Source of the DNA: Patescibacteria group bacterium
Lineage (GTDB): Bacteria; Patescibacteriota; Patescibacteriia; Patescibacteriales; UBA12465
NCBI GenBank assembly: GCA_041651355.1
Contig: JBAZJK010000001.1
Coordinates: 357,883-421,882, forward strand
Reading direction: 5' to 3'
DNA: 64,000 nt
Shown here: in pieces, positions 3,606 to 20,590 of the stretch
Layout: each line of letters opens with the position of its first letter
How positions within the stretch are numbered: position 1 is the stretch's first letter
Notes under the pieces: model-generated
Database searches by the model: none
What the model saw: the letters and a program-made list of their open reading frames with translations, nothing else
Told to the model about the DNA's origin: nothing
Made by a program: the position numbers and the translations under genes

Positions 3606-4763
3606 ATGACAATTTTAGAGTTGGTAAATTTAAGAAATATCAGGGCATTGCTTGCCGTCTTTTTTAATTTAGTAGACGACGATGAGACATATTTTTATAT
3701 TAAATCTGAATATAGGGATTCAGCATTTGCTCCAGCACGTTTAAATAGTTTTAATTATTTAACACTAAATACTAGTTTAAACTCGTACTTTAATTTAAAC
3801 TTTGAATCATTATCTCTTGGCAAGCATTTGGTAAAAATAACAAAAACATCAGAAATAAATACTTCTGAAAAGTTTTTAGCAGAAATTTATAAACAAATTC
3901 AATTATTGAGTTTTGATATTGAAACAGAAAAATACGAAGAAGCAATTTTATTATCATTATTTATTTTACGTGGCAGCCCGGATTTTACTGCTAAATATTA
4001 TGCTGTAGATATTTATAGAAAATATTCATCAAAAGAATATATAAGAAATATTTTTCAGATTCTTTCTGGTATATCAGCTATTTCTCAATTAAATTTAAAT
4101 TTTAGAGAGCTTCAGCCTCAATTTACAGCAGGTAGAAACTTAAGAAATACTCAAATCCGAATTAAACTCGGTTGGTTTTGGGAAAAATTCGGAGAAAAGA
4201 TAAGAGAAATTAATAATTATAAATATTCAATATTAAATAACAATACTGATAAAATTTCAGAACCATCAATAAGTATTGGCAATTTTTCCGATAGATTAGT
4301 TGAGTATTTAAATAATATACTTGGAGAAGAAAATCATAATATAGATATAAAAAGAGAAAGACAACGCCTTGGTCTTGAGGCTAGTGGGGCGGAAGCAAGA
4401 GATTTCAGTTTAAAAACAATAGCTAATAATATTTTTCCAGACGAATGCATGGCATGTAAAACTCGGTTTAACACTAATACAAGAACTTTTAAATTACGCA
4501 ACCAAGATAAACACTATTTTGAAATACACCATATTATCCCATTTAGTAAGGGGAAGGAGCATGATCAAATAGATAATTTAGCGAAAATTTGCCCTGTTTG
4601 TCATAGAATTTTGACAAAGAATAGAGCTGAAGAAGCTTTGCAAAAACAAACAATCAAAGACATCTTAGAAAGCTCTGAAAATGCTCAAAAATATGTAAGT
4701 ATTTTAATTGGCGATACAAACATAAATAATATAGTCGATTTTGTATATATGAAATTAGCATAG
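3606..4763 (+). CDS. HNH-motif endonuclease, putative restriction enzyme
   Basis: The C-terminal motif is CMACKTRF...FEIHHIIPFSKGKEHDQIDNLAKICPVCHRILTKN. It lies directly upstream of a DNA methyltransferase. Confidence 0.6.
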   Translation: MTILELVNLRNIRALLAVFFNLVDDDETYFYIKSEYRDSAFAPARLNSFNYLTLNTSLNSYFNLNFESLSLGKHLVKITKTSEINTSEKFLAEIYKQIQLLSFDIETEKYEEAILLSLFILRGSPDFTAKYYAVDIYRKYSSKEYIRNIFQILSGISAISQLNLNFRELQPQFTAGRNLRNTQIRIKLGWFWEKFGEKIREINNYKYSILNNNTDKISEPSISIGNFSDRLVEYLNNILGEENHNIDIKRERQRLGLEASGAEARDFSLKTIANNIFPDECMACKTRFNTNTRTFKLRNQDKHYFEIHHIIPFSKGKEHDQIDNLAKICPVCHRILTKNRAEEALQKQTIKDILESSENAQKYVSILIGDTNINNIVDFVYMKLA

Positions 4764-9285: not shown

Positions 9286-10071
9286 ATGTTTAAGATTTAC
9301 ACAACAAAAATTCAAAAAGCAATTAAATTTGCTGCTAAAACCCATAACCAATACCAACAACAGAAGCGCAAGGGAAAAGAAATACCCTATATAACCCATC
9401 CCTTAACAGTTGGAATGATTTTATCCTTAGCTAAAGTCTCTGAGGATGTTGTTGTGGCTGGTATTTTACACGACACGATTGAAGATAGTATTGATGAAAA
9501 AAAAGTGACAACCAAGATGATTAAAGAAAGATTTGGGAAAGAGGTATTAAAACTTGTTTTAAGTGTTACCGAAGAGGATAAATCTTTATCCTGGGAAAAA
9601 AGAAAAGCTGAAGCGCTAGAACATATTAAAGATTTTTCTCATGAAGCTATTTTAGTTAAGTCGGCTGATGTTATAAGTAATGTTTCTGAGCTTATTGATG
9701 ATTATGAAAGATATGGCGATGATGTTTTTGAACGTTTTAATTCTTCCAAAGAAGAGATTGTCCATAGTCAATTGAAAGTTATAAGCGCACTAATTAGTCG
9801 TTGGCCCGAAAGTCCATTGGCGCGAGATCTTAAATTTTTGGCCAGTGATTTAAGTCGGATTGAGAGGTTGGAATTTATGAAAAATCACCCAGCCCCAATT
9901 ATTGAGTATAAAGATTATAATGAAAATATGAAACTAAAATGTCCGATATGTGGTTGGAAGGGAACGCCAAAAACAAGTGATTACGTAAATACTGATAGTC
10001 ATTTTTGTCTCGATGTCTCTTGTCCTGTGTGTGATAAAATGCTATTAGTAGCTAACTATCCCAAAGTATAA
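9286..10071 (+). CDS. HD-domain protein of the RelA/SpoT hydrolase type (small alarmone hydrolase-like) with a C-terminal zinc ribbon
   Basis: Motifs are KGKEIPYITHPLTVGMIL...VVAGILHDTIEDS...FGKEVLKLVLSVTE...VKSADVISN, with C-terminal CPICGW...CPVCDK. An ATG at 9286 lies inside the track ORF 9256-10071. Confidence 0.7.
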   Translation: MFKIYTTKIQKAIKFAAKTHNQYQQQKRKGKEIPYITHPLTVGMILSLAKVSEDVVVAGILHDTIEDSIDEKKVTTKMIKERFGKEVLKLVLSVTEEDKSLSWEKRKAEALEHIKDFSHEAILVKSADVISNVSELIDDYERYGDDVFERFNSSKEEIVHSQLKVISALISRWPESPLARDLKFLASDLSRIERLEFMKNHPAPIIEYKDYNENMKLKCPICGWKGTPKTSDYVNTDSHFCLDVSCPVCDKMLLVANYPKV

Positions 10072-10125: not shown

Positions 10126-10235
10126 GTTTTATAAAGAGTGCAGCGAGGGAACTAGCCCGACGACCTGCCAGCAACCCCGGAGTAATCCATCCGGAAGGTG
10201 CTAATTCTAGCCCGATGAGGGAAAGATAAAGGTCG
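10126..10235 (+). promoter_or_regulatory. SAM-I (S-box) riboswitch aptamer
   Basis: Conserved blocks appear in the expected order: UUUAUAAAGAG, GAGGGAACUAGCCCGACGA, CAGCAACC, AAGGUGCUAAUUCUAGC, P4 CCC-GAUGA-GGG and GAAAGAUAAAGG (P1 closing). Compare the canonical CUUAUCAAGAG..GAGGGACUGGCCCGAUGA..CGGCAACC..GGUGCCAAUUCC..GAAAGAUGAG. Confidence 0.8.
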
Positions 10236-10308: not shown

Positions 10309-10596
10309 ATGAAAAAAGAAAATATCGAATTTATAAGAAAAACAGCCCCAGATGGTTCATTAGAAGATATTAAGGTTTATGGTTTAGAGAACGGGGAAGA
10401 ACAATATTATACAATTTTAGGAACGGGTTATGGGATTAATTTCGTTCACTGCTTTTCGATGGGCGCTAAGAACAAAGATAATTTCTGGGAAAGGGTATTC
10501 GCCTATAAAATTATTCCCAATAGAGATCCCGCTAATTTATTAGAGCGAGCAACGGGAGAGGACTATATTTCAGTTGAATTTTACGAATTAAGCTAA
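10309..10596 (+). CDS. Hypothetical 95-aa protein under SAM-I riboswitch control
   Basis: The ORF sits directly after the riboswitch terminator. No recognisable motif. Confidence 0.5.
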   Translation: MKKENIEFIRKTAPDGSLEDIKVYGLENGEEQYYTILGTGYGINFVHCFSMGAKNKDNFWERVFAYKIIPNRDPANLLERATGEDYISVEFYELS

Positions 10597-10654: not shown

Positions 10655-11083
10655 ATGTTTAAGCTTTCAAAAGCCACAATTTACAAAATTTTACCACTAG
10701 CCATTCTTTATTTACTGCTAATTATCTCTTTTCTTGGACGGAGTGATTATGAATACTTAATTGTTCTAATAGCGGCAATTCCATTGGTTGCTTATATATT
10801 TACAGAGGATGGTAAACTTAAAAAATATCTTCAGTATGTTTTGTACATTTTTGTCGCAGGAATTATTGTTTATTGGATATTCGGTTCTTATGGCTGGGTT
10901 TGGTCAATATTTCATGGTTATTTTACTTTTTCTTGGCCTTCTTGTTTTTTTACTGGATGCTACGGTGAGACCGGATGGAATGTATTTATTCAAAGTGGTA
11001 TTTTTCAAGGTGATTTAAAGGTTTTATTCTATTTAGGAATTATTTATTTGGCTATTAAAAATAAAAACAGGATTAAGGTTTAA
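10655..11083 (+). CDS. Integral membrane protein (about 4 TM)
   Basis: There are hydrophobic segments throughout the 142-aa ORF. The internal ORF 10788-11018 is rejected. Confidence 0.5.
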   Translation: MFKLSKATIYKILPLAILYLLLIISFLGRSDYEYLIVLIAAIPLVAYIFTEDGKLKKYLQYVLYIFVAGIIVYWIFGSYGWVWSIFHGYFTFSWPSCFFTGCYGETGWNVFIQSGIFQGDLKVLFYLGIIYLAIKNKNRIKV

Positions 11084-11087
11084 AATA

Positions 11088-12644
11088 TTATTTATTATTA
11101 GCCATACTAGTTCGAACTTCGTCCACGACCCCGAGCATTGAAGAAAAATCGCTTTTATTTGTGATTTCTGAGAGCTGTTTATATGGCTCTTTGAATGAAA
11201 TATTGGCGATTTTTTTGTTGCCGATTTCGGCGTTCCAAAGTAAGGAAAATAAGACTTCTCGTTTTTTCTCAAGAGATAGGGTCAGAAAGCTATTTTTCAG
11301 TCTTTTAGGCTCTAAAAACACATTTTTTATCCGTTCCAAAGTATCCGTGCCTGCCTCTTTCAGTTTTTCTTTTAAGTCGCTTAAATCTTTTAAAGAGTTT
11401 ATCTCTTCGTTGTTTAGTTGCTTATCCTTGGCCTCATAAACGGCCTTGTCTAGGGTTTTATCAAGGTAGGCGTCAAGCAGAGTATTTCGTCTTTCTTTGA
11501 GCTTGGCGAGCCTATTTTTTAGGGTTAACTCAAGTTCTTCTAAATAGTTCAGATTATTATTTCCTTGTTCTTTTTTAGTCTGATAGCAAAGCTCGATTAA
11601 CTCGTCGTCAAATATTAGCTTATCAAACACGCCCAGTAATTCTTTATCTAAATAATCCTCGGTTAAATAGACTTTATGCTCTTCGCAAGTATTCTTGCCG
11701 TTGGTGCAATAGTAATAAATATGTTTACCTTTCTTTAGTGTGGCTGTTAGCAGACAGCCACACTTGGCGCATTTGAGCAGTCCCCGAAAAGCAAAAGGAA
11801 TTATTTGGCTTTTTACATGTTTTTTAACGCCTAAAATAACTTGGACATCGTCAAATAATGCTTTAGTTATGATCGGCTCGTATTTGCCTAAATACTTAAC
11901 GCCGTCTTTTTCCATAATTCCGCAGTAGAAAGAATTGCCTAATATAGTATGAATGGTACTGGGATAATATTTCTTTCCGCCCCGACTTCTGAATCCGTCT
12001 TCATAAAGAATTTGCGATATTTCTTTTACCCCATACCGACCAGTATTATACATCTCAAAAACTCGTCTGATAAATTTAGCCCGATGTTTATCAACGACAA
12101 TTTTTAAGTCTTTATTTAAATAACCGATAGGCGCAAGATTCGGCCAATAGCCTTGAGATAGTTTCGCTCTAATTCCTCGTTTAACATTTTTACTTAAATC
12201 TAAAATAAACTGGTTAGCCATTCCACTTTCAACATTAAATAATAGAGCATTATCGCCAGGCAGATATTGCCGTTCCATTGTTTGGATTATCTTTAATTGG
12301 TTTTGTTGTAAGAGCCATTGAATAATAGCCGAGTCGATTGGATTACGAGAAAGACGGTCAATCTTCCAACAGATAACGCCGTCAATTTTACCTCGCTTGA
12401 TCAAATTGATAAGTTCGGAAAATTGTGGTCTATTATCTGGTTTCTTGGCCGATTTACTTTCTCGAAAAGTTTGGATAATTTCTAAACCTAAATTATCCGC
12501 CATTTTAAGCATTTCTTGTTCTTGAGAATCCAAGGACAAGACTTGCCGATTATCGTCTTCGGTCGACTTTCGGCAGTAGAGGGCGTATTTAATTTTTTGG
12601 TCGTTATTTGTCATATTTTTAGTAAAGTTATAAAATATTAGCAT
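11088..12644 (-). CDS. Large serine recombinase 1 (phage-integrase type)
   Basis: The N-terminal resolvase domain shows YALYCRKSTEDD..SLDSQ and CWKIDRLSRN. A recombinase domain follows, then the zinc ribbon CAKCGCLLTA..YYYCTNGKNTCEE and a C-terminal coiled coil. An alternative start is the ATG at 12614. Confidence 0.85.
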   Translation of the reverse strand: MLIFYNFTKNMTNNDQKIKYALYCRKSTEDDNRQVLSLDSQEQEMLKMADNLGLEIIQTFRESKSAKKPDNRPQFSELINLIKRGKIDGVICWKIDRLSRNPIDSAIIQWLLQQNQLKIIQTMERQYLPGDNALLFNVESGMANQFILDLSKNVKRGIRAKLSQGYWPNLAPIGYLNKDLKIVVDKHRAKFIRRVFEMYNTGRYGVKEISQILYEDGFRSRGGKKYYPSTIHTILGNSFYCGIMEKDGVKYLGKYEPIITKALFDDVQVILGVKKHVKSQIIPFAFRGLLKCAKCGCLLTATLKKGKHIYYYCTNGKNTCEEHKVYLTEDYLDKELLGVFDKLIFDDELIELCYQTKKEQGNNNLNYLEELELTLKNRLAKLKERRNTLLDAYLDKTLDKAVYEAKDKQLNNEEINSLKDLSDLKEKLKEAGTDTLERIKNVFLEPKRLKNSFLTLSLEKKREVLFSLLWNAEIGNKKIANISFKEPYKQLSEITNKSDFSSMLGVVDEVRTSMANNK

Positions 12645-12645
12645 T

Positions 12646-13053
12646 ATGAATAATTTTCAATACAAAGCGGATTATAATTATTTCCTCAAGAAATTAGCTG
12701 ATGGCGACAGAATCTTATTTAAAAAGAAATTTCTAAAAATGTTTGATTTTAGGAATCCGCAAGTCAAGAGGAAAGAATTTAATCTAATCAGAAATAAGGT
12801 TTATAAAGAATTAGTTTCAAAATACGGAGAAAAATGCCAATTAAATTTATGTTCGGATTGCAGTAAGATAAAATCTTTTGATGTTGATCATTCCATTCCG
12901 CTCTCAACAAATAAGCTTAATAAACTCTTGAGAAAATTAGAGCCAGAGGTCGGGAAGAAAGTCGCTAGTCAAAGTTTCGGCTCTAATAATATTCTTAACT
13001 TAAGGATAGCTTGCAAGAGGTGCAACTCTTTTAAAAAGCATAAAATCCTCTAA
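12646..13053 (+). CDS. Free-standing HNH endonuclease
   Basis: The motif is CSDCSKIKSFDVDHSIPLSTNK...NLRIACKRCNSFKKHK. Confidence 0.7.
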   Translation: MNNFQYKADYNYFLKKLADGDRILFKKKFLKMFDFRNPQVKRKEFNLIRNKVYKELVSKYGEKCQLNLCSDCSKIKSFDVDHSIPLSTNKLNKLLRKLEPEVGKKVASQSFGSNNILNLRIACKRCNSFKKHKIL

Positions 13054-13236
13054 AAAATCAAAAAGGGCAGTCCTGGTTGCCCTAACTCAAAACTAGCCCA
13101 AAAGCTAATTTATCGCTAAGCAGAACTGCCCATTTTAAGCGACAAATAAATGTCCTCTATAAAAAAGGCTTCTGGGCAACACAGTATTGAGTTAGAGCAA
13201 CGCTTTTAATATATCAAAGAACGAGTCTAAAATCAA
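13054..13236 (-). ncRNA. Structured RNA motif, copy A (promoter, P2-P3-P4 hairpin, loop-complementary tail)
   Basis: The minus-strand promoter is TTGATT (13231-13236), N17, TATATT (13208-13213). P2 is 13187-13200 with 13077-13090. P3 is 13168-13177 with 13096-13105. P4 is 13138-13142 with 13113-13117. Loop segment 13121-13131 pairs with tail 13065-13075, followed by U5GAU6. The single mismatches in P2, P3 and the loop-tail helix are G:U on the minus strand. Confidence 0.6.
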
Positions 13237-14177
13237 GAATAAGTTTCCAGTATCTCGTTAATGCGATTTTCGGCGTGCGGATTATTGGATAAATCGTATT
13301 GCCAGTAATTGAGCCAACGCAGATAATTTTTCGGCTGTCCGACTTTATCGTTAATATCGCTATTGTTATATTCCGTCTCGCCGTCTCGCTTATAGACCAG
13401 GCAATCCAAGGGAATTTCCGACTCAATTAAATCAATCACTTCTTCAAAATATTGCTCCTGCGGTTTGAGCAGACCTTTGCTCGTGATGTATTTCTTTTGT
13501 CCTGGAAATTGATTATCAAAAATAGATTTTTGAATATACTTAATAAAGTAATCAATAATTTTCTTAAGCTGATCTTGGTTTTTAATCTTTTTAAAATTCT
13601 GTTCTTTTCCGCCGACCATAATCCTGCCTTGCCCCCAAATATCTCTTAACTTATCATAGATATTTTTAATATAGGGCAGATTGAAAAATATCATATGATA
13701 ATGAATAGCTCCTCGCTCTTGGAGTTCAAATACCGCTAAGTATTTTAAATTACTCTGCTTTAAATCTTTGCCCTCAATTCCGTTGGTTTCATAATTTAAT
13801 CTACGAATGAATTTGGTAAATTCATAGTTAGCCTGTTTGAGGTCTTGGATATTTTCCTTAAAGGTTAAAGTCAGAGTAATCGGCAAATAGGGTTTATTAT
13901 TATTCTTAAACCATTTAAAGCTATTGGCGTATATCAACCTCTTAATCATCCTTTTAGATCGCCTGCAGGACGATTTGAGGATGTCTTCAAGACTGGACGG
14001 CTCTTTATGGCGCAAGGCTTCTTCTTCGGGAGTTCTCGATTTGCGGAGTTTACGCCCCAACATAATATCCGCTCCGAATTTATAGACCTCTACTAAACAA
14101 CCCGATTTAACCAGTTTCTTTCTGGTCGGATAATTGAGTTGAATTTCTACCCCGAATTGGTCTTTATAGTTTTTCAT
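13233..14177 (-). CDS. HUH rolling-circle replication initiator (Rep), two-tyrosine type
   Basis: Motif 1 is ITLTLTF, motif 2 is GAIHYHMIFF (HUH) and motif 3 is DYFIKYIQK (Y-x-x-K-Y-x-x-K, as in the phiX174 gpA type). Confidence 0.75.
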   Translation of the reverse strand: MKNYKDQFGVEIQLNYPTRKKLVKSGCLVEVYKFGADIMLGRKLRKSRTPEEEALRHKEPSSLEDILKSSCRRSKRMIKRLIYANSFKWFKNNNKPYLPITLTLTFKENIQDLKQANYEFTKFIRRLNYETNGIEGKDLKQSNLKYLAVFELQERGAIHYHMIFFNLPYIKNIYDKLRDIWGQGRIMVGGKEQNFKKIKNQDQLKKIIDYFIKYIQKSIFDNQFPGQKKYITSKGLLKPQEQYFEEVIDLIESEIPLDCLVYKRDGETEYNNSDINDKVGQPKNYLRWLNYWQYDLSNNPHAENRINEILETYS

Positions 14178-14213
14178 ATTGTTCTAATTAGATGTTCTTT
14201 TTAACAAGGATAA

Positions 14214-14263
14214 CTTTTTTCTTTTCGGCTCCCCCTACGGGGGATCCGCCGAAAAGAAAAAAA
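14214..14263. repeat. Long near-perfect palindrome between the 66-aa ORF and Rep (origin or terminator candidate)
   Basis: CTTTTTTCTTTTCGGC (14214-14229) pairs perfectly with GCCGAAAAGAAAAAAG (14248-14263). The inner stem is TCCCCC-TAC-GGGGGA. Confidence 0.7.
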
Positions 14264-14266
14264 GAG

Positions 14267-14467
14267 TTATTCCTTGGTAATAAATAGGTCATATAAATGA
14301 GCCAAACTTAATAAATATTGCTCGGCCTCATCGTCTTTGACTTCACGCCCAAACTTACGGCTGAAATAGACCTTGGCACGGGTGCGGAGTTGTTCGGACA
14401 GGGAGTACATAAAAAAAATGAGATTAGATTTAACTAATCCCATTTTAAAATAAGAGCCTTGCGCCAT
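14267..14467 (-). CDS. Small hypothetical protein (66 aa or shorter)
   Basis: The ORF lies between the 320-aa gene and the palindrome/Rep. No motif. Confidence 0.35.
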   Translation of the reverse strand: MAQGSYFKMGLVKSNLIFFMYSLSEQLRTRAKVYFSRKFGREVKDDEAEQYLLSLAHLYDLFITKE

Positions 14468-14503
14468 CTTGCATGCAAAGCTCTTTAGCCTATTTTATTA
14501 TTT

Positions 14504-15466
14504 TTACAGGTGTTTTTGGTTAATTTTGCACCAACCGAGTTTTTCCGTGGAGTATATCAGAAAGTCGTTTATATTATCTCTTGTGTCTTTCTCGATTTTT
14601 TTGTTTAAGTTATCGCAGGCGTGCCTGAACTTATTCCAGTCTTTAGCCTTGTCATATTCTTCTTTAAGAAAATCTTTGGATATTTCCGAGAAATCAGCGG
14701 GATCGGAAATATCGTCTTTAGAGAAAATACACTCTAAAATATAATGGTCTATCGGTCTGTCTTTCTGCCTAGCGATTTTAATCTCTTCGCCTCGGATATT
14801 AAGCAGACTATTATCCTTGTCAAAAGAAATGGGAGGTTTTGGTTTGCTGTGAGCTAAAAATTCCTCGGCACCAATAGTATCAAGGATGTATTTGCCTACT
14901 AATCCCATACATTCCAAATGGAACGAGGCGGTACTGACGGTAGTGCTTTTTAATTCTCCTTGGGTATCTTTAACATTAATCGGAGCAAGCGAAAAAGACT
15001 CTTCTTTGGCTATTTGAGCCAGTCTGTTAGCCTCTTCGGGGTTATTTGACTTAATGCTGTCTTGGGCTTTGGCCATTAAATCATAAACAACTAGTAAGTC
15101 GAGCAGATAGATAGGCAAAAGAATAAAAATATTAAGGTCTTCTTGGCTTTTTATCTTTTTCTGCCACGAGTCATTTTCTTGTTTAAAAATAGGAATTGCC
15201 GAAGAATCCACGGGATTTTTCAAATCAAAAACCATTTTACTGGGGTCATATTTATCTAGCTCCTTAGTTTTTTTCATTTGGAGCATAATCTGTTTTTGGC
15301 TTTCGGCTCGTTCTAAAACATCGCCTAGTATCTTTTGAATATATGGCTCGGATTTTAAAAAACCAACAAAGTCAAAAATAATTCTAAAGCCCTCGAAAGT
15401 ACCAGAATTATCTTGGTATTGGCTGATAAATGATTCTATTTTATTTTTGATTTTATCGGTAGTCAT
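14504..15466 (-). CDS. Hypothetical protein; C-terminal domain paralogous to ORF 2568-3377
   Basis: A 320-aa ORF. See the shared blocks listed for 2568-3377. It is the first gene of the leftward unit ending in Rep. Confidence 0.5.
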   Translation of the reverse strand: MTTDKIKNKIESFISQYQDNSGTFEGFRIIFDFVGFLKSEPYIQKILGDVLERAESQKQIMLQMKKTKELDKYDPSKMVFDLKNPVDSSAIPIFKQENDSWQKKIKSQEDLNIFILLPIYLLDLLVVYDLMAKAQDSIKSNNPEEANRLAQIAKEESFSLAPINVKDTQGELKSTTVSTASFHLECMGLVGKYILDTIGAEEFLAHSKPKPPISFDKDNSLLNIRGEEIKIARQKDRPIDHYILECIFSKDDISDPADFSEISKDFLKEEYDKAKDWNKFRHACDNLNKKIEKDTRDNINDFLIYSTEKLGWCKINQKHL

Positions 15467-15569
15467 AGTTTTATTTTGGCATAAATTAGGGCTTATGGCA
15501 ATTGGCTAATTTTTGATTATTTTAGGGTTTTATGGTATTTTAGAAATATAATATTTATTATAAAACCTT

Positions 15570-16157
15570 ATGAAATTACTAGAACAAATATCATTGTTAA
15601 AATGGGATTTACGAAAGCAGGAATATAAAAATATTTTTTCCGATAAAAAATGGCTACCCGACCACCCCACGCAAAATGCTATAGCTTTTTCTGATAGCAT
15701 AGATAATAGACAGGTTTCTGTGTCTGCATATTTTCTTACTGATAATCAAGATAAATTAGGTAAAATTGGCATATCTTTTGAAGATATTCAAACGGATATC
15801 GAACGCAAAGATATATATGAAAATTTGGTTAGAACTTTAAGCGAAAAATATGGTGATTTTAAATATTCAACCACAATGCCAAGGATAAATACTCCCATAG
15901 AATATCGTTTTTCAGAATCAATTCGATGGGCAACGGATGATACGATTGTCGAAGCCACTCTAATATTATCTGAGTGCGGTTCTCCTAATCCTGGTTTAGG
16001 AATTATTTTTTATGATAAAAAAAATGATCCTCTCATGAAAGAGTTTCCTGATTATGCGAGTCCAAACTATGAATCAAGCCCTATAACTGGTAAAAATTTT
16101 AGGCCGTTGTCAGAGGAGCAGATTAATCAGATTAAAAAAGCAACAGAAGATAAATAA
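15570..16157 (+). CDS. Hypothetical protein (195 aa)
   Basis: The first gene of a tightly spaced 5-gene plus-strand unit. Confidence 0.45.
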   Translation: MKLLEQISLLKWDLRKQEYKNIFSDKKWLPDHPTQNAIAFSDSIDNRQVSVSAYFLTDNQDKLGKIGISFEDIQTDIERKDIYENLVRTLSEKYGDFKYSTTMPRINTPIEYRFSESIRWATDDTIVEATLILSECGSPNPGLGIIFYDKKNDPLMKEFPDYASPNYESSPITGKNFRPLSEEQINQIKKATEDK

Positions 16158-16175
16158 TTTTAAGATTATAAAATT

Positions 16176-16535
16176 ATGAAAAAATGTCCATTTTGTGCCG
16201 AAGAAATACAAGAAGAGGCGATTAAATGTAAACATTGCTCATCGGATTTATTATTTGGAGATGCTGTAAATAATTCAGCAAATCCTGTAGTTGAAAATAC
16301 CGAGAAAGGTAAAATAAGAACATTGACCTGTCAACAATGTGGCGGAGAAATGGTAAGAAAAAAAGTTGCTACAAATAATTCGTCAGCCTGTATATCATTT
16401 GTTTTAGGGATTATATGTCTACTATTTTTTTGGCCGTTAGGCTTAATATTGATTATTATAGCTTTAATTTTAGGAGCGACCTCTAAAAAGTATTGGGTAT
16501 GTAAAAAATGCAGTTGTAAAATTGAAAAATTATAA
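16176..16535 (+). CDS. Zinc-ribbon membrane protein
   Basis: Cysteine pairs are [12 protein letters not shown] and CQQCGG. The C-terminal TM segment is [30 protein letters not shown], followed by CKKCSC. Confidence 0.5.
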
Positions 16536-16549
16536 AAAAATATAAATCT

Positions 16550-17338
16550 ATGGCCACACAAAATCAAAAAGATACGCTGTATAAAAAATTGGCAAAATAC
16601 AGCAAAAAGTATTTGAACAAGAAATATTCGGAGTTAGATGAGTCAGCAACCAGGATAATGGTCAACAATTTTCTAACGGAAATTCTTGGTTATGCCGAGC
16701 TAGAAGAAATTAAAACCGAATACAGGGTAAGAGGAGAATATGCTGATTATGTAATACAAGTTGGGCGGAAAAAGCACTTTATCGTTGAAGTTAAAGCAAT
16801 CCAATTAGATTTATCCGACCACCATTTAAGGCAGGCCGTAAATTACGCCGCCAATGAGGGTATTGATTGGGTGTTGCTAACTAATGGTAAAAACTTTTCG
16901 CTTTATAAAGTAATATTTGCCAAGCCAATAGACAGTAAAAAAGTATTTAGTTTTAATTTATCAGACCCGAAAGAACTTAAAAGTTCTGTTGAATATATTA
17001 TGTATCTAACAAAAAAATCAGTCATGAAAGACGAGTTGACTGATTTTTGGAAACGTTTTCAGGCTCTTGAGCCAAATCATTTATGTAAGAATCTATATGC
17101 AATTGAAGTCGTGAGATTTTTGAAGAAAGTTCTAAAAAAATCAACCGACTTATCTTTTTCTGATGACGATATTTTAGAGTCGCTTAATATTATTATCAGA
17201 GCTAAAATTGAGTCGGAAAAACCAAGATGTCCAATAAATGTTTTTGGAAAGAAAGGAAATAATCAAAATAAAACAAAAGGGGCATTTTTAAATAATGAGA
17301 TTATAGATACAGAGCAGCCAATTATACCTAAAATATGA
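16550..17338 (+). CDS. PD-(D/E)xK nuclease-fold protein, type I restriction HsdR N-terminal-domain-like
   Basis: The core is YADYVIQVGRKKHFIVEVKAIQLDL...AVNYAANEGIDWVLLTNGKNFSLYKV. Confidence 0.5.
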   Translation: MATQNQKDTLYKKLAKYSKKYLNKKYSELDESATRIMVNNFLTEILGYAELEEIKTEYRVRGEYADYVIQVGRKKHFIVEVKAIQLDLSDHHLRQAVNYAANEGIDWVLLTNGKNFSLYKVIFAKPIDSKKVFSFNLSDPKELKSSVEYIMYLTKKSVMKDELTDFWKRFQALEPNHLCKNLYAIEVVRFLKKVLKKSTDLSFSDDDILESLNIIIRAKIESEKPRCPINVFGKKGNNQNKTKGAFLNNEIIDTEQPIIPKI

Positions 17339-17850
17339 TGCCAATAACTAAAAAAAAGATAAAAGAGTATGCTGATAAATACGACAGGGGCGCGATTGGC
17401 AGTTTTGACGAATATGGCGAGAAAGAACTAAAAGAATGGTTTATAGACCATAGATATTTAGATAAAGAAAAATTTATCAGACTGGGTAAATGGAAATCTC
17501 GTCGGCCAATAAAGCATTATGAAAGCAACAACGATAGTTTAATAAAAGATATTACTAAATTTAGTCTTTCGGTCGAGAATGAGGAAGCTCGTATTAAAAT
17601 ACTCTTTGTGTTAAAAGGCGTATCTTGGCCAGTTGCTTCTACAATTTTACATTTCGCTTTTCCTAATAAATATCCAATTATGGATTTTAGGGCTTTATGG
17701 TCGCTTGGCATAGAACAACCGAAAAGTTATAATTTTAATTTTTGGCAGAGCTATTGTGAGAAAATTAGAGAGGTGGCGCAAAGTGTTCATGAAGATATTA
17801 GAACAGTCGACAAAGCCCTTTGGAAGTATTCAAAAGAACATCAAAAATAA
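17335..17850 (+). CDS. Hypothetical protein (171 aa)
   Basis: It overlaps the upstream gene by 4 nt (ATGA). No confident motif. Confidence 0.45.
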   Translation: MMPITKKKIKEYADKYDRGAIGSFDEYGEKELKEWFIDHRYLDKEKFIRLGKWKSRRPIKHYESNNDSLIKDITKFSLSVENEEARIKILFVLKGVSWPVASTILHFAFPNKYPIMDFRALWSLGIEQPKSYNFNFWQSYCEKIREVAQSVHEDIRTVDKALWKYSKEHQK

Positions 17851-17876
17851 AATTTAGATATATAATTAAGAAATCT

Positions 17877-18743
17877 ATGGCCAGATACTACAAAAGGAGT
17901 TATAAAAATTATGAAGAAGACGATGGGGCTAAATTTATTGTCGGAGTTGTTGTCTTTTTTATCGTTTGTCTGGTATTGGCTTATAATGCTGGAACAGCCA
18001 CTTTTTTAGCTACCCTAGCTAGTGAGGTTGGGCTAATTGTTTTGGTAATCGTCGGGATTAAGGCTTTAAAAAAGAGCAAAGAAAATGCTCGTAAAGCTAA
18101 AGTTGAAAATATATTAAGCACTATCCAAAAAGCAGGGCTTGAAGAATATATCAATAATTTTATATCCCGATTCAGCCTTGGTCAGGAAAAGGATAAAAAT
18201 GTTTGGGTAAGACGAAATTATAAAATCAGTTGGGATAGAATAAATGATTTAAAAGATTTTTTATATCAAAAAGAGATTGATTTTTCTTCTTCCGAAATCT
18301 GTATCCTTTTAGCTAACTATATTGATAAGAAAGAATTTGATCTAACTGTTAATAGCATTGGCGCAACTACTAATAGTTTTTCAAAATTAAACGGAACAGA
18401 TTTTGAGCATTTATTATATCGTCTTTATGAGGCGATGGGGTATTCTGTCTTATCTAATGGAAAAACAGGAGACCAGGGAGGCGACTTAATAGCGACTAAA
18501 AATCAGGAGAGAATTTTAATTCAGGCGAAATGTTATAAAGATTGGAGCGTTGGCAATAGTGCCGTTCAAGAGGCCGTCGCAGCCAGGAATCACTATGATT
18601 GTAATAAGGCCATGGTTATAACAACGAGCGTTTTTACTAAAGAGGCCACGGAATTAGCAAAAACAAACAAAGTAGAATTAATACCCAAGGAATTACTCCA
18701 AAAAATGCTTCTAGATAATTTAAAAGAAAGTTGGAGTTATTAA
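17877..18743 (+). CDS. Membrane-anchored Mrr-type restriction endonuclease domain protein
   Basis: It has N-terminal TM helices. The C-terminal core is GTDFEHLLYRLYEAMGYSV...GDQGGDLIATKNQERILIQAKCY (Mrr_cat-like D..D..QxK). An ATG at 17877 lies inside the track ORF 17820-18743. Confidence 0.65.
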   Translation: MARYYKRSYKNYEEDDGAKFIVGVVVFFIVCLVLAYNAGTATFLATLASEVGLIVLVIVGIKALKKSKENARKAKVENILSTIQKAGLEEYINNFISRFSLGQEKDKNVWVRRNYKISWDRINDLKDFLYQKEIDFSSSEICILLANYIDKKEFDLTVNSIGATTNSFSKLNGTDFEHLLYRLYEAMGYSVLSNGKTGDQGGDLIATKNQERILIQAKCYKDWSVGNSAVQEAVAARNHYDCNKAMVITTSVFTKEATELAKTNKVELIPKELLQKMLLDNLKESWSY

Positions 18744-18768
18744 GGATAAATTTTTTATTTAATTTTAG

Positions 18769-20412
18769 CTAGTTCGGTTCCAAGTATATCCCAACCTCGG
18801 AGCCAGATATCAAATCGTGACGTGCAAAGAGGGCTTGGAAGCCCTCTTTTGCTTTTATATCAGCTAATTCTTTGTTAGCTATAAAGAGTTCTGAAAAGAC
18901 CTGCGTGGCTATTTCTCGCTTTTCAATATCAAGTGCGTGTTTATAGTAAACATTAGCCATTTTTACCAGTTCTGAAAAAGTAATGACGTATTTTAACATT
19001 TCATTGGCGGCTTCTTGGTGGGCGTGAGTTTTGTTTTCTATTACCTGCAACTCTTCGTTTAGGCGCTTTTCCTCTTTGGCTATTTCATCAATACTCATAG
19101 TATTAGCTCTAAGAAGGCTAATTTTATTTTTAGTAATATAGTTAAGATCAGCGTATATGCGCTTTCTTTCCTGATTAAAGTCATCCAGTTCCTTTTCTCT
19201 CCCAGAGGTTATTTTATCAAGCTCAAAATTAGCTCTGGCTTCAATTTCCTGTTTTTCGGCGTCCGTAAAGCTTATTTTCTCCAAAACCCGCTCTACAAGG
19301 CCGTCTATAGCCTTCTCGGTTATGCTTTTACTCTGGTTGTGGCAGCCATCTTTACATCTGGAATAATAGTAATTTATCCCTTTCCTCTGATAAGGGGAAT
19401 ATGACCGGCCACAAGGACATTTTATGATATTTCGATAAGTGAAGAAGTCTTTATCAATATAGTGGATGCAAACATTTTTTGATTTTAACACTTGTTGCAC
19501 TTGATTGAATAAGGAAGTATCTATTAGGGGCTGGTGGGCGCCATCTATGTATTTTTCTTTTCTCCCAATTTTTATTTTTCCGATATAAAAAGGATTATTA
19601 AGGATATTCTCGATTGTTTTGTTATTTACCGGTCGGCTGGCCTTGGGTATTGTATTAACTTCAATGCCAGCCAGCATCTCTGCTTTTGTGCGATTTCGTC
19701 TTGCTGGCTTAGTGGTTAACCCTTGTGTATTTGCCCATTTTGCTAATTGGAATAAGCTCCATTCGCCGCTTGAATATAATTCAAAAATTCTTTTAACTAT
19801 TGATGCTCGTTCGGGATCAATCGGTTTGCTCCCGGATCCCTCGTCAAGATAACCGATGGGCGACATATAAATGCATTTGCCTTCGGCTCGTAGTTTTTCT
19901 GCAGCCGCCTTAACCTTTTCGCTTATGACCCGTGAGTAATGCGCAGAAAACATCCCGTCTATATCACGGTGCAGGGCACCGGAGCTGCTTTTTTCGTAGT
20001 TTGCTTGCACGAACCGAATATCAACCCCCTTATCCATTAAGTTCTTGATTATAAGGCCGTCCTGCTCATTGCGGCTTATTCTGTCCCAGCAGAGGCAAAT
20101 TATCCCCTTAAATTCCTTATCAAGCAGTTTTTGAACCATTACTTGGAATTTAGGACGTTCAATTTTATATTCTACCGTGCCATCCTTTTTCATTTGAATT
20201 CCGGAAGTCTTGAAGGCAGTATGCTTCTCCTTTATTGTCCCTGCCTCACAAAATCCCTCTTGGTCTAATTGAGCTATATCCAGCTTATGATCGCTGGCAT
20301 ATTTTGAACATTGTCCTATCTGATAGTCAATGGAATTTTTTTGATTATCGGCGTCATCCGTGCTTTTTCTTGTATAGATTAAATAATCATTTTGATACTT
20401 ATTGTTTTTCAT
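18769..20412 (-). CDS. Large serine recombinase 2
   Basis: Motifs are YLIYTRKSTDDADNQKNSIDYQ and CLCWDRISRNEQD, then a recombinase domain, a Cys-rich ribbon (IKCPCGRSY..YYYSRCKDGCHN) and a coiled coil. Confidence 0.85.
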   Translation of the reverse strand: MKNNKYQNDYLIYTRKSTDDADNQKNSIDYQIGQCSKYASDHKLDIAQLDQEGFCEAGTIKEKHTAFKTSGIQMKKDGTVEYKIERPKFQVMVQKLLDKEFKGIICLCWDRISRNEQDGLIIKNLMDKGVDIRFVQANYEKSSSGALHRDIDGMFSAHYSRVISEKVKAAAEKLRAEGKCIYMSPIGYLDEGSGSKPIDPERASIVKRIFELYSSGEWSLFQLAKWANTQGLTTKPARRNRTKAEMLAGIEVNTIPKASRPVNNKTIENILNNPFYIGKIKIGRKEKYIDGAHQPLIDTSLFNQVQQVLKSKNVCIHYIDKDFFTYRNIIKCPCGRSYSPYQRKGINYYYSRCKDGCHNQSKSITEKAIDGLVERVLEKISFTDAEKQEIEARANFELDKITSGREKELDDFNQERKRIYADLNYITKNKISLLRANTMSIDEIAKEEKRLNEELQVIENKTHAHQEAANEMLKYVITFSELVKMANVYYKHALDIEKREIATQVFSELFIANKELADIKAKEGFQALFARHDLISGSEVGIYLEPN

Positions 20413-20590
20413 ATTTTTATTTATTAACTAATAACTAAAATGGACGGTTCTGGCTTACCCGATATACATTACCAAAGGTAATTTTTATCGGCAGAACCGC
20501 CCATTTCAGGCGATAAAATAATAAAACCTTTGGGTTTATAGTATATCAGGTAAGCACTATTATAATACCAAAAATTTAATTTATTTTCAA
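20413..20590 (-). ncRNA. Structured RNA motif, copy B, forming the 5' leader of LSR2
   Basis: The minus-strand promoter is TTGAAA (20585-20590), N17, TATTAT (20562-20567). P2 is 20541-20555 with 20453-20467. P3 is 20526-20535 with 20471-20479. P4 is 20511-20518 with 20483-20490. Loop 20492-20506 pairs over 15 bp with tail 20438-20452. The LSR2 ATG lies 25 nt after the tail. Confidence 0.65.

Follow-up and report, generated by a model that had tools for sequence, protein, structure and literature searches.

To which gene does a structured RNA belong when an oppositely oriented endonuclease gene stands between it and the recombinase gene downstream, and how did that endonuclease gene come to lie there? 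The question is raised by a stretch of 64,000 nucleotides from a Patescibacteria group bacterium (contig JBAZJK010000001.1, positions 357,883 to 421,882), which was analysed as a whole and is called the window here; positions are those of the window unless the number of a related locus (L) is given. On its minus strand, the gene of an HUH rolling-circle replication protein (Rep) is followed by a candidate promoter with its -35 box over the Rep stop codon, by a structured RNA (13200..13058, copy A) and by the gene of a large serine recombinase (LSR), named LSR1. A free-standing HNH endonuclease gene on the plus strand occupies the space between the RNA and LSR1. The reading that we favour, and hold to be rather probable, is that these genes form an integrative element (element A) in which the RNA is a cis-regulatory leader of the LSR and an antisense cargo slot holds a mobile HNH gene.

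An earlier description made from the sequence alone (the original prediction) had proposed that the HNH gene inserted into a leader between the RNA and LSR1. The open reading frame (ORF) coordinates that it gave for Rep, HNH and the longest LSR1 ORF (from 12644) all hold by ORF listing, and the promoter scan places the Rep stop codon inside the -35 box at 13231-13236, where an overlap had been claimed. Its view of Rep, RNA and LSR1 as a co-directional compact module was also borne out, the same arrangement being kept in dozens of loci.

A structured RNA family upstream of large serine recombinases

The covariance model R1, built from 20 homologues, matched copy A and a second copy in the window (copy B) with the scores given in Table 1, and there was no other forward match in the 64 kb. 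The model also recovered about 40 copies upstream of genome-derived LSR genes, and the family was found at more than 90 loci overall. Covariation was tested on 54 diverse homologues against 500 shuffles and slid controls. In these homologues, 93% of the cells were paired and 40 of the 50 pairs had changed on both sides, including every pair of P2 (15/15), P3 (10/10) and P4 (8/8). The 11-bp pseudoknot formed by the P4 loop and the tail of the RNA was 99.8% paired, with five pairs changed on both sides. None of the 500 shuffles attained the observed covariation values and the slid controls collapsed. The one-sided changes were almost all compatible with G:U pairs, which are strand specific, and this points to the minus-sense strand as the folded one. 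Furthermore, a -10 box (TAnnnT) was found at a fixed distance before P2 in all 54 homologues, which points to RNA rather than single-stranded DNA. The G+C content of the RNA ranged from 31% to 59% across hosts with the pseudoknot core conserved, and the pseudoknot sequence was nearly invariant across LSRs that are only 25% identical.

The helices of copy A, namely P2, P3, P4 and the pairing of loop with tail, were as originally described when read from the sequence, including the numbers of G:U pairs. The P4 helix of 5 bp described then is present, but it extends to 10 bp, and the small hairpin P3a has to be added to the fold. The predicted folding energy of copy A was -57.7 kcal/mol (z = -5.9 against shuffles), and copy B had a z of -5.7. 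The pseudoknot may extend into the U-tract (UUUUUGA, 13064-13058) by pairing of UCGAAA with UUUUGA, which would put the end of the RNA domain at 13058, 4 nt from the HNH stop codon (13051-13053). The A-rich side of the P4 loop can serve as the partner of the U-tract. The terminator scan called a 6-bp hairpin with TTTTGATTTT at 13083..13064, whereas the helix that is conserved is that of the long-range pseudoknot, whose loop has 39-47 nt.

A search of Rfam 15 with both copies and divergent homologues gave no family match at the gathering threshold or at E<0.05. The best sub-threshold match on the motif was a plant miRNA model (23.9 bits against 74), and the only Rfam match in the window was a SAM riboswitch at 10126-10232. 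The 16-mer core AAATGGGCRGTTCTGC had 31 matches in viral contigs, all of them in unrelated phage coding sequences from which the motif was absent; blastn with the motif as query found no match among cultured phages and plasmids, and full-text literature searches for LSR- or Patescibacteria-associated RNAs returned nothing relevant. When the window was searched with the 11-mer, 12 matches were found against 6.8 expected, a number that is uninformative by itself. Complementarities of 6 nt seen by eye, one of the P4 loop to the LSR1 coding region and one of the tail to a tRNA-Gln stem, were dismissed as chance since they are not conserved in copy B.

The partner of the RNA was examined by an RNA-only scan of metagenomes, in which the pattern consisted of the two pseudoknot strands and 80 of 114 pattern matches were examined. 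In 71 of these 80 loci the motif was followed directly by an LSR gene of the same strand; two others were contig ends and seven were apparent chance palindromes. Many of the LSRs recovered in this way are only distantly related to LSR1. Rep was upstream only in the LSR1-like subset, and elsewhere the upstream gene was that of a cysteine-rich zinc-finger-like protein without Pfam match, a tyrosine-recombinase-like gene or another gene. The LSR is thus constantly downstream while Rep is often absent, and the RNA is therefore to be assigned to the LSR. Between the pseudoknot and the LSR ATG there were 16-54 nt in 47 of 69 loci; the mode, exactly 25 nt, was found in 20 of them. About 25 nt leaves no room for another promoter, and the RNA of this compact form (RNA, ~25 nt, ATG) is therefore the 5' leader of the LSR mRNA. 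The compact form is ancestral for the whole family. These findings suggested a role as regulatory leader of the LSR transcript as the most likely one for the RNA.

The RNA was missing from some relatives of LSR1. In L037 and L038, with LSRs 83% and 80% identical to LSR1, respectively, there was no RNA anywhere in the 5.5-9.5 kb available. The L037 sequence at 3940-4005 has -35 and -10 hexamers homologous to the RNA promoter, placed 6 nt before the LSR ATG, which suggests that the recombinase mRNA is leaderless in this locus. In L038 (3970-4003), 28 nt separate a different Rep gene from the LSR that comes after it. The R1 search also found no RNA at LSRs 45-51% identical to LSR1. From these RNA-less relatives it follows that the RNA is dispensable for the enzyme.

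Some further observations concern the neighbours and variants of the RNA. In divergent loci, Rep is replaced by a conserved cysteine-rich protein of ~190-230 amino acids (aa) directly upstream of the RNA, which had no Pfam match (Table 1). Locus L172 holds two RNA copies, at 3624-3776 (-) and 9611-9744 (+), and the pseudoknot of the weaker one is formed by GGGCAGUCGAG and CUCGGCUGUCC, which depart from the usual sequence by compensatory changes in two neighbouring pairs. In L070 (1431-1557, -) and L123 (2480-2607, -), the RNA-LSR pair is preceded at a distance of a few kb by a LOOT RNA (RF03000, ~74 bits).

An antisense cargo slot between the RNA and the recombinase gene

The position held by the HNH gene in the window was found to be a slot of variable content. 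Inserts of 225-1244 nt right after CCCTTTTTGA were present in 22 metagenome loci and 11 genome loci, about a third, and all long ORFs in them are antisense to both the RNA and the LSR. The cargo consists of one or two genes, mostly for small membrane, secreted or unknown proteins, and the 19 unique complete loci fell into 13 cargo classes, HNH and at least 12 unrelated others. The cargo state changes at least 18 times on the LSR tree; one cargo type occurs with distant LSRs, and LSRs 95-97% identical bear different cargo. Among the closest relatives, L032 and L036 (LSR 97% identical to LSR1) and L033 (94%) are compact and HNH-less, with 25 nt between the RNA and the ATG, and L035 (95%) carries the gene of a zinc-ribbon membrane protein in the slot. 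Spacers of empty alleles include CCCTTTTTGATTATTAAACAATAATTATATGAAC and CCCTTTTTGATTATTAAACAATAATTATATG. The R1 scores of the RNA were equally high in cargo-bearing and compact loci. The spacing of 25 nt had originally been ascribed to copy B; the pseudoknot core of that copy was measured to end 29 nt before the ATG of its recombinase gene, and 25 nt is the spacing in the HNH-less relatives of copy A.

Each cargo type comes with a strong candidate antisense promoter that abuts and often overlaps the LSR ATG, and at least four types of such promoters were seen (Table 1). A cargo terminator by the RNA tail was detected by the scan only in L194, and in other loci terminators were read by eye. The cargo junctions had no shared repeat, just the promoters and hairpin or A-T-tract stretches that resemble terminators by eye.

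The HNH protein scored 23.9 bits against the Pfam HNH model (cut-off 21.4) and 1.4e-7 against PHROG 2118 (HNH endonuclease). In nine members of its family, D81-H82, N114/N118, H132, C64, C72, C123 and C126 are invariant. An identical protein is on record from a Patescibacteria metagenome-assembled genome (P0121), and the 72 homologues found are all similarly small. The -35 box of its candidate promoter overlaps the LSR1 start codon, and 9 nt lie between the end of the -10 box and the HNH ATG. The terminator scan found no terminator belonging to the HNH cassette, and its transcript would therefore run antisense into the RNA. A weak candidate promoter for LSR1 within the cassette spans the HNH start codon and has the same sequence in L034. 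A link to IscB and omega-RNA was considered and rejected, because the similarity covers only 25 residues of the generic HNH motif (16 bits against a cut-off of 175) and the HNH relatives stand without RNA.

Among more than 100 RNA-LSR loci, the HNH gene occupies the slot only in the window, L034, L136 and L138. It is thus not an integral accessory of these elements, in agreement with the original prediction. Its relatives of 66-85% identity lie in unrelated neighbourhoods, each at a different kind of site and none with an adjacent RNA or LSR; the neighbours include SmpB, DpnI, T5orf172 with type I restriction-modification genes, Fic and, 2 kb off, another LSR. The DNA homology between the window and the 85% identical relative covers 12645..13046 only, that is, the ORF. 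The confinement of homology to the ORF and the scattered neighbourhoods indicate that the HNH gene is an ORF-sized mobile unit, such as a selfish nuclease gene would be. Judged from these comparisons, the HNH gene is best described as dispensable mobile cargo in a general slot.

A clean insertion footprint, for which the original prediction had proposed a comparison with HNH-less relatives, was not found on comparison with them. The variable region (12622..13057) includes 24 nt upstream of the HNH start, and neither the flanks nor the initial LSR codons agree with those of the empty alleles (MTNND vs MNDKNE). No HNH-less allele with the HNH-type right flank TAATATTTTATAACTTTAC occurred among 243 loci, this flank being present only in HNH-bearing loci. 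In the subclade of the window, the HNH-bearing state could be the original one, with the empty spacer as its replacement. The proposed insertion into the leader therefore stands in part: the gene is non-integral, mobile and absent from relatives with LSRs 94-97% identical, but no evidence of HNH-driven homing was obtained.

Explanations for the RNA and its antisense cargo

If the RNA is the leader of the LSR, it would gate LSR expression either in a riboswitch-like manner or as a structure-dependent attenuator, with the conserved pseudoknot and the U-tract forming the off-state or the 3' end. Cargo would be tolerated in antisense only, since a promoter in sense would make the recombinase constitutive and a terminator in sense would cut the LSR from its leader. 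Cargo would turn over when the conserved flanks, namely the RNA to the left and the 5' region of the LSR to the right, recombine, without homing catalysed by HNH. LSR1 of the window would be expressed by read-through antisense to HNH and/or from the weak promoter at 12660..12632, and most of the RNA transcripts there would end at the U-tract. For the cargo-bearing copies, a stand-alone small RNA ending at the U-tract, which the original prediction had offered as its alternative, is possible.

Several observations count against the leader model or weaken parts of it. The promoters and terminators are consensus matches alone, and the L037 hexamers match 8/12 positions, are not called by the promoter scan and are identified by the alignment alone. 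An intact RNA 0.3-1.2 kb from the ORF suits a trans-acting RNA at least equally. In one clade, UCUUUGGG stands in place of part of the U-tract, which weakens a pure intrinsic-terminator reading. The RNA structure was found to sequester neither a Shine-Dalgarno sequence nor a start codon, so that a translational mechanism is not evident. The predicted energies of nested and pseudoknot-helix folds differed by a mean of 0.1 kcal/mol in the 54 sequences, and a switch is therefore indistinguishable from a static pseudoknot. Several cassettes place a hairpin or U-rich sequence beside the RNA tail, which might stop sense read-through too, and the orientation bias could go back in part to a single ancestral slot in antisense.

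The main rival holds the RNA to be a discrete molecule, acting in trans as a small RNA or bound to the recombinase as a cofactor (e.g. in directionality or assembly), with its position ensuring co-inheritance; we regard it as unlikely. A candidate promoter of its own precedes the RNA, the 5' end is hidden within P2 and the 3' end consists of a GC-rich helix and U-tract; the RNA is fully conserved in the 33 loci where cargo parts it from the ORF, and its near-invariant pseudoknot across LSRs of 25% identity would also suit such a role. However, LSRs as close as those of L037 and L038, and those 45-51% identical, do without the RNA, which is thus not an obligate cofactor, and the LSRs are of ordinary three-domain architecture with no extra domain. 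The target is probably not specified by the RNA either, as its 3' 85 nt are identical in L032 and L033, which abut different tRNAs (the 5' RNA half of L033 is off the contig). A bolder form of this idea, for which we see only a slim chance, is that the RNA is a functional partner of the LSR clade that binds the enzyme or senses a host signal and so sets the timing or direction of recombination at tRNA genes. The strict RNA-LSR linkage at 25% LSR identity, the near-invariance of the pseudoknot and the retention of the RNA despite its uncoupling from the ORF are compatible with it, and the RNA-less L037 and L038 argue that the RNA is accessory at most. If true, this would be the first RNA component of an LSR system, and the cargo slot would be a tolerated gap within one machine. 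A guide-RNA role was considered unlikely in view of the same 3' half at different tRNAs, the RNA-less relatives and the closed helices without free variable loops.

Two readings of the motif as DNA have very little probability. One takes the folded strand for single-stranded DNA that serves as a single-strand origin in the rolling-circle replication by Rep, as its place directly downstream of Rep and the strand-specific fold on the Rep sense strand might suggest. The motif, however, stands beside LSRs without Rep in the available flanks, copy B included, its duplex-type -10 box is fixed before P2 in 54/54 homologues, and the motif keeps a fixed spacing to the LSR ATG. The single-strand origin was rejected because it is the LSR, and not Rep, that the RNA goes with. 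The other, hardly credible in the same degree, makes the 11-bp inverted repeat a DNA operator or accessory site bound by the recombinase, with the covariation as a by-product. Both arms are conserved in sequence and an A-U/G-C switch occurs in both together, as such a site would require, but pairing is kept as G:U through ~60 one-sided changes of the pseudoknot core and is lost in one cell, P2-P4 covary freely without sequence conservation, and the arms are constant across LSRs of 25% identity, whose DNA specificity should differ. In addition, the spacer of 45 bp does not fit the attachment (att) sites of LSRs.

As to the HNH gene, it might be a true homing endonuclease that cleaves the HNH-less spacer between leader and LSR and is copied in by repair; we consider this improbable, to about the same extent as a trans-acting RNA. 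The gene is present or absent at one position between near-identical elements, as is characteristic of the homing endonuclease class, its catalytic residues are intact, and the members of its family are dispersed among unrelated loci, the DNA homology being confined to the ORF. Free-standing homing endonuclease genes are typically scattered in this way, with homology limited to the ORF. On the other hand, at least 12 types of non-nuclease cargo use the same site in the same orientation, only 4 of more than 100 loci carry HNH, and the HNH relatives occupy sites that all differ in kind. No clean footprint is left, since the flanks, with the promoter region and the initial LSR codons, were swapped along with the gene, and an empty allele with the HNH-type flank was not found. 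A general cargo hot spot makes HNH-specific homing unnecessary to explain the site, and we prefer exchangeable antisense cargo beside a leader RNA.

When compared with known systems, the locus resembles the IS110/IS621 bridge RNA in that a structured RNA of ~150 nt directly precedes the recombinase gene of a mobile element, in the same orientation. It differs in the partner, which is an LSR with Resolvase, Recombinase and Zn-ribbon domains and not a DEDD/Tnp enzyme, in that no variable guide loops were found (no systematic comparison of loops with att sites having been made), and in that close relatives work without the RNA. Orphan riboswitch-like or attenuator leaders and mobile-element motifs such as LOOT share with it a promoter-proximal, covarying, pseudoknotted domain before one gene class. 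The int-alpA and xerDC motifs are mobile-element-associated RNA motifs in Rfam. Unlike these, the present RNA had no match in Rfam 15 (E<0.05) and its downstream gene is a recombinase.

The slot is like phage morons and cargo hot spots in that self-contained accessory genes with their own promoter sit at a fixed intergenic position and vary in content between near-identical elements, with a terminator detected in at least one slot locus (L194). Unlike in morons, the slot is inside a 5' leader, between a structured RNA and the coding sequence, and every occupant is antisense. An integron platform also has cargo adjoining the recombinase gene, divergent transcription and a promoter overlapping the recombinase 5' end. 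Its recombinase is the tyrosine enzyme IntI instead of a serine recombinase, and in the present slot there are one or two genes, each cargo type brings its own promoter, exchange looks flank-mediated, and no attC-like sites were seen, no systematic search having been made for them. The free-standing HNH homing genes of phages are likewise small intergenic ORFs with an intact catalytic motif, homology ending at the ORF borders and a patchy distribution, but for the present gene no cognate empty target allele was identified and the site is shared with non-nuclease cargo.

Element A, its neighbourhood and the meaning of the RNA family

Element A contains a 320-aa ORF, a 66-aa ORF, Rep, the RNA, the HNH gene and LSR1 (Table 1). 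Rep matched PHROG 3419 (rolling circle DNA replication initiation; 2.1e-26) and its translation carries AIHYHMIFF, in keeping with the HUH motif. LSR1 has the Pfam domains Resolvase (PF00239, 1.1e-23), Recombinase (PF07508, 1.1e-16) and Zn_ribbon_recom (PF13408, 8.5e-9); 1136 homologues were found, and the catalytic-serine motif YCRKST is nearly invariant in the LSR alignment. The longest LSR1 ORF is 11088..12644 (-), and the original prediction had left the start at 12644 or 12614. Both ATGs exist, but that at 12614 is the predicted conserved start, because the homologues begin with MTNND... and L034 has ATA at the upstream ATG. The 10-codon N-terminal extension (12615-12644) is specific to the window and L136 and is probably untranslated, since the codon in L034 is ATA.

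The last ~40 nt of LSR1 (11129..11088) form a tRNA-like remnant. In relatives, the LSR ORF runs on antisense into a tRNA gene and the C-terminus (..RDSNP..) is encoded by the T-arm; the gene is tRNA-Gln in L032, L034, L066, L136 and L142, and tRNA-Ser in L053. The tRNA search of the 64-kb window found none, and the window and L035 retain just the tRNA-like remnant. The overlap of the LSR ORF with the tRNA gene in relatives indicates that the elements integrate at the 3' ends of tRNA genes.

Table 1. Features of element A, of copy B and of related loci (window positions unless a locus is named)
Feature	Position	Strand	Basis or remark
Integrative element A, ~4.4 kb	11088..15556 (approximate)	-	Limits of homology to L034, L035, L037, L138
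LSR1, large serine recombinase, 508 aa from predicted conserved start	11088..12614	-	Pfam; homologues; start comparison
Candidate HNH promoter	12608..12636	+	Promoter scan: TTGTCA-17-TAAAAT, 10/12 matches
Weak candidate LSR1 promoter in cassette	12632..12660	-	TTGAAA-17-TATTTT, 9/12 matches; consensus match only
Variable cargo slot	12622..13057	.	blastn breakpoints vs L032, L033, L035, L036, L128, L142, L163
Free-standing HNH endonuclease gene, 135 aa, cargo of copy A	12646..13053	+	Antisense to RNA and LSR1
Copy A of LSR-leader RNA, ~145 nt	13058..13200	-	R1 157 bits; covariation
P2	13200-13187 with 13090-13078		
P3	13177-13168 with 13105-13096		
P3a			Small extra hairpin in P3/P4 junction
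P4, 10 bp	13147-13138 with 13117-13108		First described part 13142-13138 with 13117-13113
Pseudoknot, 11 bp	13131-13121 with 13075-13065		P4 loop GGGCAGUUCUG with tail CAGGACUGCCC
Candidate promoter of RNA/LSR transcript	13208..13236	-	Scan: TTGATT-17-TATATT, upstream TG
-10 box TG-n-TATATT	13213..13208	-	Spacer to -35 box 17 nt
-35 box TTGATT	13236..13231	-	Overlaps Rep stop
Rep stop codon TGA	13235..13233	-	Inside -35 box of RNA promoter
HUH rolling-circle Rep, 314 aa	13233..14177	-	ORF; Pfam PF23343 REP_ORF2-G2P 9.9e-18
66-aa ORF of element A	14467..14267	-	
320-aa ORF of element A	15466..14504	-	
Copy B of the RNA, -10 box included	20435..20567	-	R1 110.5 bits
LSR/tRNA overlaps in relatives	L032 2726-2797; L034 7479-7550; L066 5470-5541; L142 10190-10261; L053 5470-5555		
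Cysteine-rich protein in divergent loci	L123 6351-6950; L131 895-1467; L149 5467-6073; L151 8132-8836		Motifs NYGGKRYWFICP, CGRRV, GCRHC
Candidate cargo promoter, L035 and L046			TGGTCA-18-TGnTATAAT
Candidate cargo promoter, L041 and L117			TTGACT-17-TATTAT
Candidate cargo promoter, L194			TAGTCA-17-TATAAT

A perfect 15-bp inverted repeat, TTTTTTCTTTTCGGC...GCCGAAAAGAAAAAA (14215-14229 / 14248-14262), is found just upstream of Rep, and it may be a Rep origin or operator. A close variant of this palindrome recurs before the RNA-less LSRs of L080, L081, L085, L091 and L098, often with AACTTGACTATACGCACAC. Just beyond element A, the SAM riboswitch (RF00162, 63.6 bits, + strand) precedes small ORFs at 10309-10596 and 10655-11083.

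Copy B lies directly upstream of a second recombinase gene, LSR2 (20412..18769), with no cargo and no adjacent Rep, and LSR2 is 25% identical to LSR1. This second RNA-LSR unit is ~3 kb from element A. The genes of a Mrr-type restriction endonuclease (17820-18743) and of an HSDR_N-like protein (16550-17338) stand between the two units, and the region (15570-20567) suggests an island of mobile and defence genes.

The interesting parts of this locus are the RNA family and the architecture of the slot. LSRs are major genome-engineering tools that are thought to act as proteins alone, and a conserved pseudoknotted RNA 5' of one large LSR clade is undescribed in Rfam 15 or in the literature searched. 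The RNA offers a testable route to the control of integration and excision in the tiny integrative elements of Patescibacteria. The picture of an HNH gene that homed into a leader gives way to that of one among many exchangeable antisense cargo units. The antisense-only slot between leader and coding sequence is an unusual and precisely delimited hot spot, and it shows how minimal elements gain accessory genes, such as those of nucleases and small membrane or secreted proteins, without disturbing the control of the recombinase.

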